Source: Escherichia phage Ebrios | Sequence record: MG966531 | Length of the DNA: 39,752 bases | Strand: one strand, 5' to 3' | In this document: piece by piece, positions 3,460-16,644 of the stretch | Numbering within the stretch: the first letter of the stretch is position 1 | How the letters are laid out: each line of letters starts with the position of its first letter | Program-made: the position numbers and the translations under genes | The notes under the pieces: model-generated | Databases searched by the model: none | What the model saw: the letters and a program-made list of their open reading frames with translations, nothing else | What the model was told of the DNA's origin: nothing

Positions 3460-6111
3460 ATGACTGTAATCGCAATCGAAAAGAACGACTTCTCCGACGT
3501 TGAGCTGGCTGTTATCCCGTTCAACACACTGGCAGACCACTACGGTGAGAAGCTGGCCCGCGAGCAGTTGGCACTTGAGCACGAAGCTTATGAAATGGGT
3601 GAGGCTCGTTTCCGCAAGATATTCGAGCGTCAGCTTAAGGCTGGTGAGGTTGCCGATAACGCTGCCGCTAAGCCGCTGGTCGCAACCCTGCTCCCCAAGA
3701 TGATTGAGCGAATCAACATTTGGTTCGAGGAGGTTTCCGCTAAGCGTGGCAAGCGCCCGACTGCCTTTAAGTTCCTGCAAGAGGTCAAGCCCGAGGCTAT
3801 CGCTTACATCACCATCAAGACCGTTCTGGGTGCTCTGACCAGTGCTGAGCAAACCACTGTGCAAGCCGCTGCGTCTGCTGTTGGTCGCGCCATTGAGGAC
3901 GAAGCCCGCTTTGGTCGCATCCGTGACCTTGAGGCTAAGCACTTCAAGAAGAACGTGGAGGAACAGCTCAACAAGCGCGTGGGCAACGTCTACAAGAAGG
4001 CTTTCCTGCAAGTGGTTGAGGCTGATATGCTGAGCAAGGGACTGATGGGTGGCGAAGCGTGGTCTAGCTGGCACAAAGAGGACTCCATTCATGTTGGTGT
4101 GCGTTGCATCGAAATGCTCATTGAGTCAACCGGTCTGGTCGTCCTTGAGCGTCAAAACGCTGGCGTTGTTGGCGCTGATGCTGAGACCCTGAGCCTTGCC
4201 TCTGAGTACGCTGACGCAATCGCCACCCGCGCTGGTGCTCTTGCTGGTATCTCCCCAATGTATCAACCTTGTGTAGTTCCGCCGAAGCCTTGGACAACCG
4301 TGACTGGCGGAGGCTACTGGGCTAACGGTCGTCGTCCGCTGGCTCTGGTGCGTACCCACGGCAAGAAGGCGCTGATGCGCTATGAGGACGTTTACATGCC
4401 TGAGGTTTACAAGGCGGTCAACCTTGCACAAGCCACCGCATGGAAAATCAACAAGAAGGTGCTGGCGGTAGCCAACGAGATTACCAAGTGGAAGCACTGC
4501 CCTGTTGAGGACATTCCGGCAATCGAGCGCGAGGAGTTGCCTGTTAAACCGGACGACATAGACGAGAACCCTGAGGCGCTGACCAACTGGAAACGCGCTG
4601 CTGCTGCTGTGTACCGCAAGGACAAGGCCCGCAAGTCTCGCCGTCTGTCCCTTGAGTTTATGCTTGAGCAGGCCAACAAGTTCGCAAACCACAAGGCCAT
4701 TTGGTTCCCTTACAACATGGACTGGCGTGGTCGCGTTTACGCGGTCTCCATGTTCAACCCGCAAGGCAACGATATGACCAAGGGCTTGCTGACTCTGGCT
4801 AAGGGCAAGGCAATCGGTAAGGAAGGTTTCTACTGGCTGAAAATCCACGGTGCAAACTGTGCTGGTGTCGATAAGGTTCCGTTCCCTGAGCGCATCAAGT
4901 TTATCGAAGACAACCACGAGCACATCATGGCGTCTGCTAAGAACCCGCTTGAGTACACTTGGTGGGCCGAACAGGATAGCCCGTTCTGCTTCCTTGCGTT
5001 CTGCTTTGAGTACGCTGGTGTGATGCACCACGGCTTGTCTTACAACTGCTCTCTGCCGCTGGCGTTCGATGGCTCCTGCTCTGGTATCCAGCACTTCTCC
5101 GCGATGCTGCGAGACGAAGTTGGTGGCCGTGCGGTGAACCTGCTCCCGAGCGAGACCGTGCAGGACATTTACGGCATCGTAGCCAAGAAGGTGAACGAAA
5201 TCCTGCAACGCGATGTTATCTCTGGCACCGATGACGAGTTGGTCACTGAAACCGACAAGACCACTGGGGAAATCACTGAGAAAACCGTACTGGGCACTCG
5301 CACTCTGGCGGGCCAGTGGCTGGCCTATGGGGTCAACCGTAGCGTGACCAAACGTTCCGTAATGACTCTGGCGTATGGCTCCAAGGAGTTCGGTTTCCGT
5401 CAGCAAGTCCTTGAGGACACTATCCGTCCGGCTATCGACTCCGGCAAGGGCCTGATGTTCACCATCCCGAACCAAGCGGCTGGCTACATGGCTAAGCTGA
5501 TTTGGGACTCTGTGAGTGTGACCGTGGTTGCTGCGGTAGAGGCCATGAAGTGGCTCCAAAGCGCCGCTAAACTGCTGGCCGCTGAGGTCAAGGACAAGAA
5601 GACTGGCGAGGTTCTGCGTAACCGCTGCGCTGTTCACTGGGTAACTCCCGATGGTTTCCCTGTGTGGCAGGAGTACCGCAAGCCGCTGCAAACCCGTCTG
5701 AACCTGATGTTCCTCGGTCAGTTCCGCTTGCAGCCAACCATCAACACCAACAAGGACTCTGGGATTGACGCGCACAAGCAGGAGTCGGGCATTGCGCCTA
5801 ACTTCGTTCACTCTCAGGACGGCTCTCACCTGCGCAAGACCGTAGTATGGGCTCACGAAAAGTACGGCATCGAGTCTTTCGCTCTGATTCACGACTCTTT
5901 CGGCACCATTCCGGCTGACGCTGGCAACCTGTTCAAGGCTGTGCGTGAGACAATGGTTGACACCTACGAGAACTGCGATGTTCTGGCTGACTTCTACGAG
6001 CAGTTTGCAGACCAGCTCCACGAGTCCCAACTGGACAAGATGCCTGCTCTGCCGAAGAAAGGTAACCTGAACCTGCGAGACATTCTTGAGTCTGACTTTG
6101 CATTCGCTTAA
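3460..6111 (+). CDS. 1: Gene 1, single-subunit DNA-dependent RNA polymerase of T7 specificity
   Basis: 883 aa, near-collinear with T7 RNAP as I remember it, including the C-terminal ...LRDILESDFAFA; the PTINTNKDS region matches T7 rather than T3, consistent with the CGACT promoters. Confidence 0.98.
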   Translation: MTVIAIEKNDFSDVELAVIPFNTLADHYGEKLAREQLALEHEAYEMGEARFRKIFERQLKAGEVADNAAAKPLVATLLPKMIERINIWFEEVSAKRGKRPTAFKFLQEVKPEAIAYITIKTVLGALTSAEQTTVQAAASAVGRAIEDEARFGRIRDLEAKHFKKNVEEQLNKRVGNVYKKAFLQVVEADMLSKGLMGGEAWSSWHKEDSIHVGVRCIEMLIESTGLVVLERQNAGVVGADAETLSLASEYADAIATRAGALAGISPMYQPCVVPPKPWTTVTGGGYWANGRRPLALVRTHGKKALMRYEDVYMPEVYKAVNLAQATAWKINKKVLAVANEITKWKHCPVEDIPAIEREELPVKPDDIDENPEALTNWKRAAAAVYRKDKARKSRRLSLEFMLEQANKFANHKAIWFPYNMDWRGRVYAVSMFNPQGNDMTKGLLTLAKGKAIGKEGFYWLKIHGANCAGVDKVPFPERIKFIEDNHEHIMASAKNPLEYTWWAEQDSPFCFLAFCFEYAGVMHHGLSYNCSLPLAFDGSCSGIQHFSAMLRDEVGGRAVNLLPSETVQDIYGIVAKKVNEILQRDVISGTDDELVTETDKTTGEITEKTVLGTRTLAGQWLAYGVNRSVTKRSVMTLAYGSKEFGFRQQVLEDTIRPAIDSGKGLMFTIPNQAAGYMAKLIWDSVSVTVVAAVEAMKWLQSAAKLLAAEVKDKKTGEVLRNRCAVHWVTPDGFPVWQEYRKPLQTRLNLMFLGQFRLQPTINTNKDSGIDAHKQESGIAPNFVHSQDGSHLRKTVVWAHEKYGIESFALIHDSFGTIPADAGNLFKAVRETMVDTYENCDVLADFYEQFADQLHESQLDKMPALPKKGNLNLRDILESDFAFA

Positions 6112-6146: not shown

Positions 6147-6169
6147 TAATACGACTCACTATTGGGAGA
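6147..6169 (+). promoter_or_regulatory. Phage promoter phi1.1B
   Basis: TAATACGACTCACTATTGGGAGACC; the same 25-mer recurs at 8135. Confidence 0.75.
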
Positions 6170-7743: not shown

Positions 7744-8137
7744 GCTAGACCCTGCGGCTCCTTCCGGAGTCGCTTCTTCCAAAGGTAAGCCGATTGGCTC
7801 ACGAAGAAAGGATGGCTACTGGGTTCTGTCCTGTGGTGGCAAGCACATCCTTGCGCATAGGGTAGTCTGGGTGCTTCACAATGGGCCAATACCTGATGGC
7901 TTGGTCATTGACCACATCAACAGGAATCCTAGTGACAACCGGATAGAGAACCTACGATGCGTACCGCAATCGGTGAACCTTGCGAACGTCAGTGTTCGGC
8001 CACATTGTAAGAGCGGCGAGAAGTACATTGCGTTCGATAGTAGAACTGGTCGATTCACTGTGAGAATCAGGCGGGTTAACCACGGAACCTTCGCCACTCT
8101 TGAGGAGGCGATAGCGAAGCGCGACTCTGTGATGTAA
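7673..8137 (+). CDS. HNH homing endonuclease with C-terminal AP2-like DNA-binding domain
   Basis: HNH motif HRVVWVLHNGPIPDGLVIDHINRNPSDNRIENLR....N and C-terminal GEKYIAFDSRTGRFTVRIRRVNHGTFATLEEA. ATG at 7673 has RBS GGAGGAG; the open frame extends up to the GTG at 7616, so the exact start is uncertain. Confidence 0.8.
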   Translation: MAHCVTRLSVASEELRTIQQRRYKLDPAAPSGVASSKGKPIGSRRKDGYWVLSCGGKHILAHRVVWVLHNGPIPDGLVIDHINRNPSDNRIENLRCVPQSVNLANVSVRPHCKSGEKYIAFDSRTGRFTVRIRRVNHGTFATLEEAIAKRDSVM

Positions 8138-8157
8138 TACGACTCACTATTGGGAGA
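8135..8157 (+). promoter_or_regulatory. Phage promoter, exact duplicate of the phi1.1B 25-mer
   Basis: TAATACGACTCACTATTGGGAGACC, overlapping the HNH stop codon. Confidence 0.7.
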
Positions 8158-8162
8158 CCATT

Positions 8163-8199
8163 GGCCTGCACCTCCTGAGGGTGTGGGCCTTTGTAGTTT
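8163..8199 (+). terminator. Early intrinsic terminator (TE-like) for host RNAP
   Basis: GGCCTGCACC/GGTGTGGGCC stem with 7-nt loop, then a T-rich tract TTTGTAGTTT; resembles the T7 TE hairpin CACCTTCGGGTGGGCCTTT. Confidence 0.6.
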
Positions 8200-8226
8200 C
8201 TACAAGACTCACTAAAGGAGGCCATT

Positions 8227-9309: not shown

Positions 9310-9530
9310 TGACTACTCTGTATGATACAACTACCAACAATAACATGGACAAAGGGTCTGCCGTGGTGGAAAACCGGAAGTTCTGGGCCACCGTCCAGAC
9401 CGCTGAGCACTCCTACGAAATGCCCATTTACGCTGTGAGCCTTGAAGAGGCCACCGAGCTGGCTGAGCGTCAATACGTTCCGGCAGGCTTTGAGGTAATC
9501 CGAGTGCGTCCCTGCCGACTGCCGCGTTAA
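9309..9530 (+). CDS. 2: Gene 2, inhibitor of host RNA polymerase
   Basis: ...[42 protein letters not shown] as in T7 gp2. Confidence 0.9.
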
Positions 9531-9550
9531 TACGACTCACTATTGGGGAC
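9528..9550 (+). promoter_or_regulatory. Phage promoter phi2.5
   Basis: TAATACGACTCACTATTGGGGAC. Confidence 0.75.
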
Positions 9551-10286: not shown

Positions 10287-10742
10287 ATGGCTGGCGCATA
10301 CGCTGCGCGTGGTATCCGAAAGGTCGGGGCATTCCGCTCCGGCCTTGAAGATAATGTCTCTAAGCAGCTAGAGATTAAAGGAGTGAAGTTTGACTACGAG
10401 TTGTGGAAGATTCCCTACGTAGTCCCTGCAAGCAATCATTGGTATACACCAGACTTCCTGCTGCCTAACGGAATCTTCATTGAAACCAAGGGCCTATGGG
10501 AGAGTGACGACCGAAAGAAACACTTATTGATTCGTGAACAGTTTCCCGAACTGGACATCCGTCTAGTGTTCTCAAGCTCTCGCACGAAGCTATACAAAGG
10601 GTCTCCGACCAGTTACGGTGAGTGGTGCGAGAAGCACGGTATCCTGTTTGCTGACAAATTAATTCCTGTAGAATGGCTCAAAGAACCCAAAAAGGAGGTG
10701 CCATTTGACAAGCTGAAACAATCGAAGGGAGGAAAGAAGTAA
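10287..10742 (+). CDS. 3: Gene 3 endonuclease I (Holliday-junction resolvase)
   Basis: MAG..A.GIRKVGAFRSGLED.VSKQLE.KG.KF.YE.WK.PYV.PASNH.YTPDFLLPNGIF.ETKGLWESDDRKKHLLIREQ as in T7 gp3. Confidence 0.95.
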   Translation: MAGAYAARGIRKVGAFRSGLEDNVSKQLEIKGVKFDYELWKIPYVVPASNHWYTPDFLLPNGIFIETKGLWESDDRKKHLLIREQFPELDIRLVFSSSRTKLYKGSPTSYGEWCEKHGILFADKLIPVEWLKEPKKEVPFDKLKQSKGGKK

Positions 10743-11255: not shown

Positions 11256-13435
<2,180 letters not shown>

Positions 13436-13473
13436 TGGGATAACCCACACACCAACCAAGAAGGAAACACACT

Positions 13474-13692
13474 ATGAGCACTATGAACATCATCAAAGGT
13501 TTTGGTCGCATGGTCGTTCGCATGTATAACCGCGAGGCTGCCCGCCTGAACAAGGTTGCCCGTGCGGAAGCCACTCTGGCCCGTGAGCTGGCCGAGCGTT
13601 CCAACAAGCTGAGTGTAAGCTCTATGAAGAACATCGACGAGGCCGCTAAGGTAGCCTCTCAGGCCCAAGAGCTGTCCAAGTTCTTCGCTTAA
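13474..13692 (+). CDS. 4.3: Gene 4.3 protein (by position)
   Basis: 72-aa ORF with RBS AAGAAGGA, between gene 4 and 4.5. Confidence 0.6.
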   Translation: MSTMNIIKGFGRMVVRMYNREAARLNKVARAEATLARELAERSNKLSVSSMKNIDEAAKVASQAQELSKFFA

Positions 13693-13735
13693 TCCTACAG
13701 ATACCAACCTGACAACCACAAGAGGAGAGTTCACT

Positions 13736-14008
13736 ATGAGCAAGGTATCCCAAACTATCGCCCTGTCCGACACCATCGACCAGTGGGGCCGCAAGGTTCA
13801 CATCAACGTTCGCAACGGTAAGGCCACTATGGTCTACCGCTGGAAGGACACCAAGTCCAACAAGAAGCATACCCAGCGCATGACTCTGAATGACGAGCAA
13901 GCGTTCCGTCTGCTGAAAGCACTGACTGGTGCTGTTGTCCACGCGGTTGAGACCAGTGGTCGCCAAGAGCAGGCTATGGAGATTCTGAACCGAATAGAGG
14001 CTGAGTGA
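13736..14008 (+). CDS. 4.5: Gene 4.5 protein (by position and size)
   Basis: 90 aa (T7 gp4.5 is about 89 aa); RBS AGAGGAGAG. Confidence 0.65.
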   Translation: MSKVSQTIALSDTIDQWGRKVHINVRNGKATMVYRWKDTKSNKKHTQRMTLNDEQAFRLLKALTGAVVHAVETSGRQEQAMEILNRIEAE

Positions 14009-14010
14009 TA

Positions 14011-14050
14011 GGCTTAAGGTCGTTCCTTCGATGGAGCGACCTTTGTGACT
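14011..14050 (+). promoter_or_regulatory. RNase III processing hairpin (R4.7-like)
   Basis: ggcttaaggtcgttccttcgatggagcgacctttgtg. Confidence 0.5.
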
Positions 14051-14051
14051 G

Positions 14052-14074
14052 TTATTCGACTCACTAATGGAGGT
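14052..14074 (+). promoter_or_regulatory. Degenerate phage promoter (phi4.7 position)
   Basis: TTATTCGACTCACTAATGGAGGT: core GACTCACTA retained, upstream TAATAC altered to TTATTC. Confidence 0.4.
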
Positions 14075-14081
14075 AGACACT

Positions 14082-14510
14082 ATGCGTAGCCAATTCGTAA
14101 TCGAAGCCGAGATTGCCAAACTGCAAGCTGAACTAGAAGACGTTAAGGCCCACGAATCGAAAGTCATTGCGGCTGCCCACATCCTGACCAACCTTGGCTG
14201 GACTTGGACTCGCAAAGACGGCTGGAAGAAACCGGTAGCTCCGATTAAGCCTACCGTGTTCGACAAGGACACCATGACCCACATCAAGAAGGGCGACTTC
14301 TGCCTGTACGCTAAGGGAACAGTTCTGGAAGGCTTTGTGCTTGTCCGTGAAGTGAACGGTGCCGAATGCACTGTATCCTATGTGTCCAGTATCGCAGAGT
14401 TCAACCGTCCGGTTGTCGCTACGTTGAAATTCCGTTGTCATGCAAACATGCTAAAGGTTGTCTCTAGCCAGACACTTGTTGACTGCATGAAGAACAACAT
14501 GGTTATTTAA
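14082..14510 (+). CDS. 4.7: Gene 4.7 protein
   Basis: 142 aa from the ATG at 14082 with RBS GGAGG; the ATG at 14067 lies inside the promoter core and has no RBS. Confidence 0.7.
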   Translation: MRSQFVIEAEIAKLQAELEDVKAHESKVIAAAHILTNLGWTWTRKDGWKKPVAPIKPTVFDKDTMTHIKKGDFCLYAKGTVLEGFVLVREVNGAECTVSYVSSIAEFNRPVVATLKFRCHANMLKVVSSQTLVDCMKNNMVI

Positions 14511-14529
14511 CCACATTTGGAGAATCACT

Positions 14530-16644
14530 ATGCTCGTTTCAGACATCGAAGCTGATGCACTCTTGGACAAAGTTACTAAGTTCCACTGTGGTGTAATCTA
14601 TGACTATCGCACAGACGAATACGTCAGTTACCGCCCTAAGGACTTCGCTGCGTACCTTGATGCGCTTGAAGCGGAGGTTGCACGAGGCGGGCTGATTGTG
14701 TTCCATAATGGTCACAAGTATGACGCTCCGGCTCTTGAGAAGCTGGCTAAGCTGGTGCTTGACCGTGAGTTCCACATCCCCAGAGAGAACTGCATCGACA
14801 CTCTCGTTATGTCTCGCCTGATTCACTCGAACCTCAAGGACACCGATATGGGCCTCCTGCGCTCCGGTAAACTGCCGGGCAAACGCTACGGTTCCCACGC
14901 TCTGGAAGCATGGGGCTACCGCTTAGGCGTAATGAAGGGTGAGTACAAGGACGACTTCAAGGCTGCTCTTGAGGAGCAAGGCGAGGAGTACGTTGAGGGC
15001 ATGGAGTGGCGCTCATTCAACGAGGACATGATGGCCTATAACGTTCAGGACGTTGTGGTCACTAAGGCACTCCTTGAGAAGCTGCTTTCCGACAAGCACT
15101 ACTTCAAGCCTGAGATTGACTTCACGGATGTCTCTGCGGATACCTTCTGGATGGAAGCTATTGAGGCGATTGACGTGGAGCACAGAGCCGCTTGGTTGCT
15201 CGCTAAGCAGGAGCGCAATGGCTACCCGTTCAACACCAAGGCTATCGAAGACCTGTACGTTGAGCTGGCCTCTCGCCGCTCTGAGCTGCTGATGCGCCTG
15301 ACTGATACCTTCGGCTCTTGGTATCAGCCAAAGGGCGGAACCGAAATGTTCCTACACCCGCGCACTGGTCAGCCGCTCCCGAAGTATCCGCGAGTGAAGA
15401 CCCCGAAGGTAGGTGGTATCTTCAAGAAGCCCAAGAACAAAGCCCAACGTGAAGGCCGTGAGCCCTGTGAGCTGGACACTCGGGACTTCGTTGCTGGTGC
15501 AGTTTACACTCCGGTGGAGCACGTAGTCTTCAACCCTTCGTCCCGTGACCACATCCAGAAGAAGCTCCAAGAGGCTGGCTGGGTTCCCGAGAAGTTCACC
15601 GATAAGGGTGCTCCGGTAGTGGACGACGAGGTGCTTGAAGGCGTTGTTGTGGATGACCCCGAGAAGCAAGCCGCTATAGACCTCATTAAGGAGTACCTGA
15701 TGATTCAGAAGCGAATCGGTCAGAGTGCTGAGGGCGACAAAGCGTGGCTGCGCTACGTTGCGGAGGACGGTAAGATTCATGGTAGTGTTAACCCGAACGG
15801 TGCGGTTACTGGCCGTGCCACTCACGCCTTCCCGAACCTTGCGCAAATACCTGGGGTTCGGTCTCCGTATGGCGAACAATGTCGTGCTGCATTCGGGGCT
15901 GAACACCATCTGGATTACGTCACTGGGGAACCTTGGGTTCAAGCTGGTATTGACGCATCTGGTCTGGAGCTGCGCTGCTTGGCCCACTTCATGGCTCGAT
16001 TCGACAACGGCGAGTATGCCCACGAGATTCTGAACGGCGACATTCACACCAAGAACCAGTTGGCTGCCGAGCTGCCGACCCGAGACAACGCCAAGACCTT
16101 CATCTATGGTTTCCTCTATGGGGCCGGAGACGAGAAGATTGGTCAGATTGTTGGTGCTGGTAAGGAACGCGGTAAGGAGCTCAAGAAGAAATTCCTTGAG
16201 AATACCCCTGCGATTGCTGCGCTCCGTGAGTCCATCCAATCGACTCTCGTTGAGAGTTCCCACTGGGTGGCTGGTGAGCAGCAAGTCAAGTGGAAGCGCC
16301 GCTGGATTAAGGGCATGGATGGTCGTAAGGTTCACGTCCGTAGCCCACACGCTGCGCTGAACACTGTGCTGCAATCCGCTGGTGCGCTTATCTGCAAACT
16401 GTGGATTATCAAGACCGAGGAAATGCTCATTGAGAAAGGCTACAAGCACGGCTGGGATGGAGACTTTGCGTATATGGCTTGGGTTCACGACGAAATCCAA
16501 GTGGCCTGCCGCACTGAGGAAATCGCCAAGGCAGTCATTGATACCGCCCAAGAGGCTATGCGCTGGGTAGGTGAGCATTGGAACTTCCGTTGCCTTCTGG
16601 ACACCGAAGGTAAGATTGGCCCGAACTGGGCTGTGTGCCACTAA
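14530..16644 (+). CDS. 5: Gene 5 DNA polymerase (family A, with 3'-5' exonuclease)
   Basis: 704 aa, same as T7 gp5; N-terminus M.VSDIEA.ALL..VTKFHCGVIYDY...EYVSYRP.DF.AYLDALEAEVARGGLIVFHNGHKYD matches. Confidence 0.98.
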   Translation: MLVSDIEADALLDKVTKFHCGVIYDYRTDEYVSYRPKDFAAYLDALEAEVARGGLIVFHNGHKYDAPALEKLAKLVLDREFHIPRENCIDTLVMSRLIHSNLKDTDMGLLRSGKLPGKRYGSHALEAWGYRLGVMKGEYKDDFKAALEEQGEEYVEGMEWRSFNEDMMAYNVQDVVVTKALLEKLLSDKHYFKPEIDFTDVSADTFWMEAIEAIDVEHRAAWLLAKQERNGYPFNTKAIEDLYVELASRRSELLMRLTDTFGSWYQPKGGTEMFLHPRTGQPLPKYPRVKTPKVGGIFKKPKNKAQREGREPCELDTRDFVAGAVYTPVEHVVFNPSSRDHIQKKLQEAGWVPEKFTDKGAPVVDDEVLEGVVVDDPEKQAAIDLIKEYLMIQKRIGQSAEGDKAWLRYVAEDGKIHGSVNPNGAVTGRATHAFPNLAQIPGVRSPYGEQCRAAFGAEHHLDYVTGEPWVQAGIDASGLELRCLAHFMARFDNGEYAHEILNGDIHTKNQLAAELPTRDNAKTFIYGFLYGAGDEKIGQIVGAGKERGKELKKKFLENTPAIAALRESIQSTLVESSHWVAGEQQVKWKRRWIKGMDGRKVHVRSPHAALNTVLQSAGALICKLWIIKTEEMLIEKGYKHGWDGDFAYMAWVHDEIQVACRTEEIAKAVIDTAQEAMRWVGEHWNFRCLLDTEGKIGPNWAVCH

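Follow-up and report, generated by a model that had tools for sequence, protein, structure and literature searches.

The 23-mer at positions 14052 to 14074 of the window (the whole stretch of DNA analysed here, a complete T7-like phage genome of 39,752 bp that belongs to the IME15 group) is very likely the positional orthologue of the T7 class II (middle) promoter phi4.7, conserved and not decaying. It is an ordinary, known kind of element, a class II promoter fused to a hairpin and to a ribosome-binding site (RBS), and we propose that the junction runs from the end of gene 4.5 through an R4.7-type RNase III hairpin, the promoter, and a Shine-Dalgarno sequence into gene 4.7. The first-pass annotation had treated the element as a decayed promoter, an instance of promoter erosion; we find instead that its upstream deviations are ancestral, maintained, and paired in a conserved hairpin and that its core remains whole between -12 and -3. 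The features of the junction are as follows.

13736 to 14008, + strand: gene 4.5 (inhibitor of toxin/antitoxin system; Pfam PF17574 TA_inhibitor, E = 5e-41)
14003 to 14057, + strand: two-stem RNA hairpin, orthologue of the T7 RNase III site R4.7 by fold and conservation
14003 to 14011 (GAGUGAUAG) paired with 14049 to 14057 (CUGUUAUUC), + strand: lower stem of the hairpin
14016 to 14026 paired with 14033 to 14043, + strand: upper stem of the hairpin, with the AAGGUC...GACCUU box
14044 to 14048, + strand: 3' internal loop, the probable cleavage region
14052 to 14074, + strand: phage RNA polymerase promoter, very likely the orthologue of T7 class II phi4.7, spanning -17 to +6
14067 to 14069, + strand: in-frame ATG at promoter positions -2 to +1, very unlikely to be a start codon
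14069 to 14073, + strand: Shine-Dalgarno GGAGG of gene 4.7, equal to transcript positions +1 to +5
14082 to 14510, + strand: gene 4.7 (142 aa; 429-nt coding sequence [CDS]; Met-Arg start; 7 orthologues)

The records nearest to the window are those of Stenotrophomonas phage IME15 and the Aeromonas phages PZL-Ah1, avDM11-UST, and KFSA9, all of them Teseptimavirus, at about 93 to 96% identity. The gene order 4.3, 4.5, hairpin, promoter, 4.7, 5 is the same as in T7, and all of the genes identified in the window and in the records of its relatives lie on the + strand; a 241-aa minus-strand open reading frame (ORF) at 13646 to 14371, antisense to genes 4.5 and 4.7, was rejected as spurious. Gene 1 (3460 to 6108) encodes the phage RNA polymerase (RNAP), which aligns with T7 RNAP at 90% identity. 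We take the AT-rich recognition loop to be the segment AKRGKRPTA and the specificity loop to span residues ~739 to 770; both segments are identical in the alignment of the window and T7 enzymes, and a cognate polymerase with T7 specificity is encoded by the same genome.

Approximately 17 phage-polymerase promoters were recognized in the window, all on the + strand, including five perfect copies of the consensus (TAATACGACTCACTATAGGGAGA). The site under study (TTATTCGACTCACTAATGGAGGT, 14052 to 14074; TTATTCGACTCACTAATGGAGG when taken to 14073) keeps the core GACTCACTA at 14058 to 14066, exactly as the first-pass annotation had described it. This exact 9-mer occurs 19 times in the window, every time on the + strand, and 29 matches are found if up to one mismatch is allowed, as against 9.3 expected. 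With a weight matrix built from the other phage promoters of the window, the site scores 25.1 bits, compared to 31.7 to 39.6 bits for the accepted promoters and 12.6 bits for the best background site; it is the weakest-scoring intergenic promoter except for a site at 8200, and the match is not a product of chance. The consensus is matched at 16 of 23 positions, with complete identity from -12 to -3, a span that takes in the specificity region (-12 to -5) and part of the TATA-like region (-4 to -1). The earlier statement that the upstream TAATAC has been lost needs correction: the hexamer, TTATTC, departs from it at -16 and -13 alone, and four of the six bases are retained. Further departures from the class III consensus are A at -2, which is usual in class II promoters, T at -1, and the bases from +3 to +6.

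The placement of the site (on the + strand in the intergenic gap that separates gene 4.5 from gene 4.7, +1 being 13 nt upstream of the 14082 ATG) is that of T7 phi4.7, which is annotated between the same two genes with its start at T7 nt 13915 and reads CTATTCGACTCACTATAGGAGAT, followed by ATTACCATG. By homology with this mapped start, transcription in the present phage would initiate at G 14069. The records of T7, 13a, and ETEP21B all mark a promoter at the homologous site, and TATTCGACTCACTA is invariant in the alignment of the window, its four close relatives, and T7. Since -16T and -13T are common to T7 phi4.7, whose functional status has been accepted ever since annotation of the T7 sequence, and invariant in this alignment, they are ancestral. 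The entire 23-mer is identical in the window, avDM11, IME15, PZL-Ah1, and KFSA9, despite a divergence of ~5% between the genomes. The likeness to T7 phi4.7 further extends to the nonconsensus (C/T)TATTC hexamer, the identical GACTCACTA core, and a GGAG at +1 that doubles as the gene 4.7 Shine-Dalgarno sequence, the distance between +1 and the ATG being 12 to 13 nt. The differences are at -17 (T in the window and C in T7), -2 (A and T), -1 (T and A), and +5/+6 (GT and AT); of these, the -2A/-1T pair makes an ATG in the window, whereas T7 phi4.7 has none (it reads TAT AGG there). The resulting CACTAATGG variant is also found at the homologous promoter of Berlinvirus and in the phi4.3 equivalent of the window itself. 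The Berlinvirus equivalent, annotated in ETEP21B, similarly shows an upstream CTATTC, CACTAATGGGAGA, and an ATG at -2 to +1. It differs in having A at -11, which reflects a different polymerase specificity, in lying ~15 nt from the hairpin, and in that its ATG is in a different frame from gene 4.7.

KFSA9 has, in place of gene 4.7, a gene for a 145-aa Endonuclease_7 protein (PF02945; L005 1877 to 2314, equivalent to 14075 to 14530 of the window). Homology between the window and KFSA9 ends directly after promoter position +6, and thus the promoter forms the left edge of the gene swap.

To gauge the expected activity, we used the in vitro data for single substitutions with T7 RNAP, given as RNA/DNA read ratios (Komura et al. 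2018; PMC5937735, S2 File). In the accessible part of that file, the wild-type promoter has an activity of 142 to 188 (mean, 169), as compared to 192 for -13T (113% of wild type), 161 and 138 for -2A, 149 for -17C, 114.5 for -16T (68%), and 73.3 for -1T (~43%), so that each single deviation of the site keeps 43 to 113% of activity. The same part of the file has no entry for -11 A or -11 T variants or for the double and quadruple combinations (TTATTC... and ...CTAATGG). Multiplication of the single-mutant values gives an extrapolated combined activity of ~0.3 of wild type, a figure that assumes independence and ignores the initial transcribed sequence, which is not GGGAGA; the promoter at 14052 is likely weaker than the consensus. 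T at -1 is not peculiar to it: it recurs in four further promoters that are otherwise consensus or near consensus, those at 6147 and 8135 being otherwise perfect. The five sites with this base (CACTATTGG or CACTAATGG) lie at 6147 to 6169, 8135 to 8157, 9528 to 9550, 13420 to 13442, and 14052 to 14074. To our knowledge, all 17 T7 promoters have A at -1, and -1T looks like a habit of the lineage that extends to Berlinvirus phi4.7.

The hairpin that precedes the promoter is supported by fold, covariation, and family membership. The RNA from 13996 to 14062 folds as a two-stem hairpin with a minimum free energy of -32.1 kcal/mol (z = -6.2), comprising a lower stem of 9 to 10 bp, an upper stem of 11 bp, and an internal loop with sides of 4 and 5 nt; folding of the same region of T7 yields the same two-stem architecture. 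In the window, the final sense codon (GAG) and the stop codon (TGA, 14006 to 14008) of gene 4.5 both fall within the 5' arm of the hairpin. We aligned 13 Teseptimavirus sequences with the promoter-stem overlap layout, leaving out 13a and PSP2-22, in which the lower stems are rearranged. Across these, the lower stem is 100% paired, the upper stem 96%, and 98% of cells overall, as against only 37 to 60% in slid controls. Four pairs are altered on both sides, although these compensatory changes derive from ~5 distinct stem haplotypes and hence from few independent events. At promoter position -17, the T7 group has a G:C pair, the window group and Rambo have an A:U pair, and NC-A has a G.U pair; the pair that includes -16 is either G.U or G:C, and the stem-closing pair likewise displays compensatory changes.

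Hairpins of the AAGGYC...GRCCTT type occur eight times in the window, all on the + strand, against 0.25 expected (upper stems at 905, 1438, 2202, 3405, 6661, 10320, 14016, and 36694), and most of them have GAGUGAUA/UAUCACU-type lower stems, as in the T7-type RNase III site family. Their positions match what we take to be the map positions of T7 R0.3, R0.5, R1, R1.3, R4.7, and R18.5; the one at 10320, which lies within a coding region, may be coincidental or an extra site. The hairpin at 14003 to 14057 shares with T7 R4.7 and with the early and late RNase III hairpins the two stems, the internal loop, and the AAGGUC...GRCCUU upper stem, and with T7 R4.7 in particular the placement directly after gene 4.5 and a 3' lower arm that enters the promoter. 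It differs from the T7 hairpins in an upper stem that is one pair longer, with a 6-nt loop, and in a 5' arm that overlaps the gene 4.5 stop, whereas that of T7 begins just after the stop. In the T7 fold, the cleavage coordinate of R4.7, which we take to be 13892 (Dunn & Studier 1983), belongs to the 3' internal loop; the equivalent cleavage by RNase III in the window would likewise fall in that loop, at ~14044 to 14048. R4.7 is a recognized T7 RNase III cleavage site (PMC6938266). A scan of 13400 to 14600 against Rfam (E <= 1) matched no family, which says nothing against the hairpin because no curated family covers the T7 RNase III sites. Phages of the K11-like and T3-like groups retain the hairpin before gene 4.7 with no promoter there; of the two elements, the hairpin has the greater age and the wider distribution.

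The geometry of the two elements suggests why the upstream half of the promoter departs from the consensus. Positions -17 to -12 are the last six bases of the lower stem's 3' arm (CUGUUAUUC), in which precisely -16T and -13T find a G and an A as their partners on the 5' side; the consensus A, in either place, would undo the pairing there. Positions -17, -15, -14, and -12 fit promoter and stem alike, two of them through G.U wobbles that are not needed in the other hairpins of the family. The chances are about even that -17 to -12 is dual coded, serving as DNA for the AT-rich recognition loop and as RNA for the RNase III stem's 3' arm, and that this double constraint, not drift, fixes -16T and -13T and makes -17 covary with a base that lies 45 nt farther upstream. 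In that case, the strength of phi4.7 would be capped by an RNA-structure requirement across Teseptimavirus. The overlap itself is visible in the T7 sequence. Searches for phi4.7 and R4.7 in the literature turned up no more than Jack et al. 2019 and one related preprint, and no paper stating a covariation or constraint argument for phi4.7/R4.7 was found in the searchable literature.

Downstream of the promoter, the start of gene 4.7 shows a Shine-Dalgarno/ATG arrangement. The GGAGG lies 8 nt upstream of the ATG at 14082, and the predicted anti-Shine-Dalgarno pairing is -10.6 kcal/mol before 14082 and +0.4 kcal/mol before the in-frame ATG at 14067, which is 15 nt, or five codons, upstream of 14082 to 14084 and would give an ORF of 147 aa (14067 to 14510). 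T7 shows the same GGAG/ATG layout (GGAGAUAUUACCAUG), and in ETEP21B the RBS is annotated at +2 to +5. Among seven gp4.7 orthologues from two genera (39 to 51% identity to the window protein), all have Met-Arg at the equivalent of 14082; the CDS length is the same as that annotated in the three closest records (IME15, avDM11, and PZL-Ah1), and gp4.7 matched no Pfam family. The first-pass annotation had already favored 14082 with its upstream GGAGG and had noted that the 14067 ATG extends the ORF by five codons with no RBS, and both points are borne out by these data. Its warning of an annotation trap was also apt: N30 (L006 408 to 881), 64795_ec1 (L011 406 to 849), and PSP2-22 (L007 440 to 895) have the gene annotated from in-frame ATGs inside the hairpin, ahead of the transcription start of the promoter, and the annotated gp4.7 of these three phages is probably 12 to 22 residues too long. 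The conserved start of gene 4.7 is the ATG at 14082, and a start at 14067 is very unlikely.

Three other readings of the site must be weighed. That it is a decaying, essentially nonfunctional relic, with gene 4.7 expressed only by read-through from upstream promoters, gains something from its second-lowest score among the intergenic promoter-like sites, from the drop in activity that -1T alone causes, and from the loss of the promoter in relatives. Genuine erosion is seen in Yersinia phage Rambo (ATCATTCACTTATAGGAGG; L013 401 to 469), where the core is deleted and the hairpin kept, and genuine damage in HZP2 (L024) and HZ2R8 (L028), where the critical -11 is A or T (~671 to 693) and the phi4.3 promoters keep G; together with its lack in the K11-like and T3-like phages, these cases indicate that phi4.7 is dispensable in evolution. 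Yet we consider decay improbable for the window: all of the upstream-half deviations are common to the functional phi4.7 of T7 and invariant across the clade, the core is intact and the 23-mer identical in five diverged genomes, no deviation is disabling singly in the accessible in vitro data (PMC5937735), -1T is present in several strong-looking promoters of the same genome, and KFSA9 kept the promoter although the downstream gene was swapped. Thus, erosion of phi4.7 happens within the group, but not in this genome. A second reading accepts a maintained promoter and holds that its nonconsensus upstream half has been preserved for the benefit of a weak promoter (e.g., for low or lysozyme-sensitive class II expression before gene 5), the hairpin overlap being incidental. 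The Berlinvirus phages 285P, ETEP21B, ErnstBeyeler, and PYPS50 speak for it, as they have CTATTC at -17 to -12 unpaired, with the promoter ~15 nt past a rebuilt lower stem, and this retention outside the stem weakens the pairing-constraint idea; moreover, models of T7 generally give class II promoters a low strength compared to phi10 (0.01; PMC6938266). We regard selected weakness as possible, though rather unlikely. Weakness alone does not predict that -17 and -16 should vary within Teseptimavirus and still always pair with the 5' arm, -13T and -16T make the promoter barely weaker in the in vitro values accessible to us (PMC5937735), and pEa57, in which the promoter is likewise detached from the stem, has the hexamer TAATAC. 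The Berlinvirus segment UAUGAAAUCUAUUC looks like a relic of a T7-type 3' arm, and the CTATTC there may simply be inherited, or may persist because a weak promoter is tolerable or of use. As against plain inheritance or selection for weakness, the pairing constraint appears to be the likeliest factor holding -16 and -13 within Teseptimavirus, at about half confidence.

The remaining alternative concerns translation: the ATG at 14067 might be a real alternative start on read-through mRNA processed by RNase III, yielding a 147-aa isoform (MEVDT-gp4.7). No stop codon separates this in-frame ATG from the one at 14082, it is shared by avDM11, IME15, and PZL-Ah1, and it would lie ~20 nt from the new 5' end after cleavage. 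Nevertheless, we judge such a start highly improbable, as it has no upstream Shine-Dalgarno complementarity, its conservation is explained by the promoter itself, and the orthologues align from the Met-Arg at 14082. In Berlinvirus, furthermore, the promoter ATG is not in frame with gene 4.7; in KFSA9 it begins a mini-ORF of 4 codons, and T7 has TAT AGG in its place. By homology with the +1 of T7, RNA initiated at the promoter would not contain the ATG, since the ATG spans -2 to +1.

The reading of a conserved phi4.7 orthologue leads to the following proposal for the working of the junction. The phage RNAP would bind 14052 to 14074 and initiate at G 14069, and the first five bases of the resulting mRNA, GGAGG, would be the ribosome-binding site for the ATG at 14082. 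Read-through transcripts from upstream promoters would include the hairpin at 14003 to 14057, and cleavage of these by host RNase III would be expected within the 3' internal loop, as in T7. The segment from -17 to -12 may then represent a maintained compromise, a promoter that is somewhat weakened and not eroding. For annotation, a phi4.7 promoter and an R4.7-type hairpin should be marked here, with the gene 4.7 start at 14082; the database records of several relatives start gene 4.7 at spurious upstream ATGs within the hairpin or promoter. The junction is a small example of overlapping codes (the stop codon overlaps the RNA stem, the stem overlaps the promoter, and the promoter overlaps the ribosome-binding site) and a reminder that a nonconsensus promoter sequence need not mean decay. 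Its interest is minor and lies in the same bases serving promoter and hairpin arm, with covariation at -17; it opens no new question.

Other promoter-like sites of the window display related features. In the phi4.3-like promoter at 13420 to 13442 (TAATACGACTCACTAATGGGATA), the gene 4 stop codon TAA (13420 to 13422) occupies positions -17 to -15, and an ATG is again found at -2 to +1, followed by GGA TAA. We know of no T7 counterpart of the promoter-like TATTACGACTCACTAGAGGCAGC at 2063 to 2085 (23.9 bits), which lies within an early-region ORF (1670 to 2194). A second site that is nonconsensus at -17 to -12 (CTACAAGACTCACTAAAGGAGGC, 8200 to 8222) abuts a two-stem hairpin at 8153 to 8201 (-26.9 kcal/mol; z = -2.9), just downstream of the near-perfect promoter at 8135, and may be another promoter/hairpin overlap.
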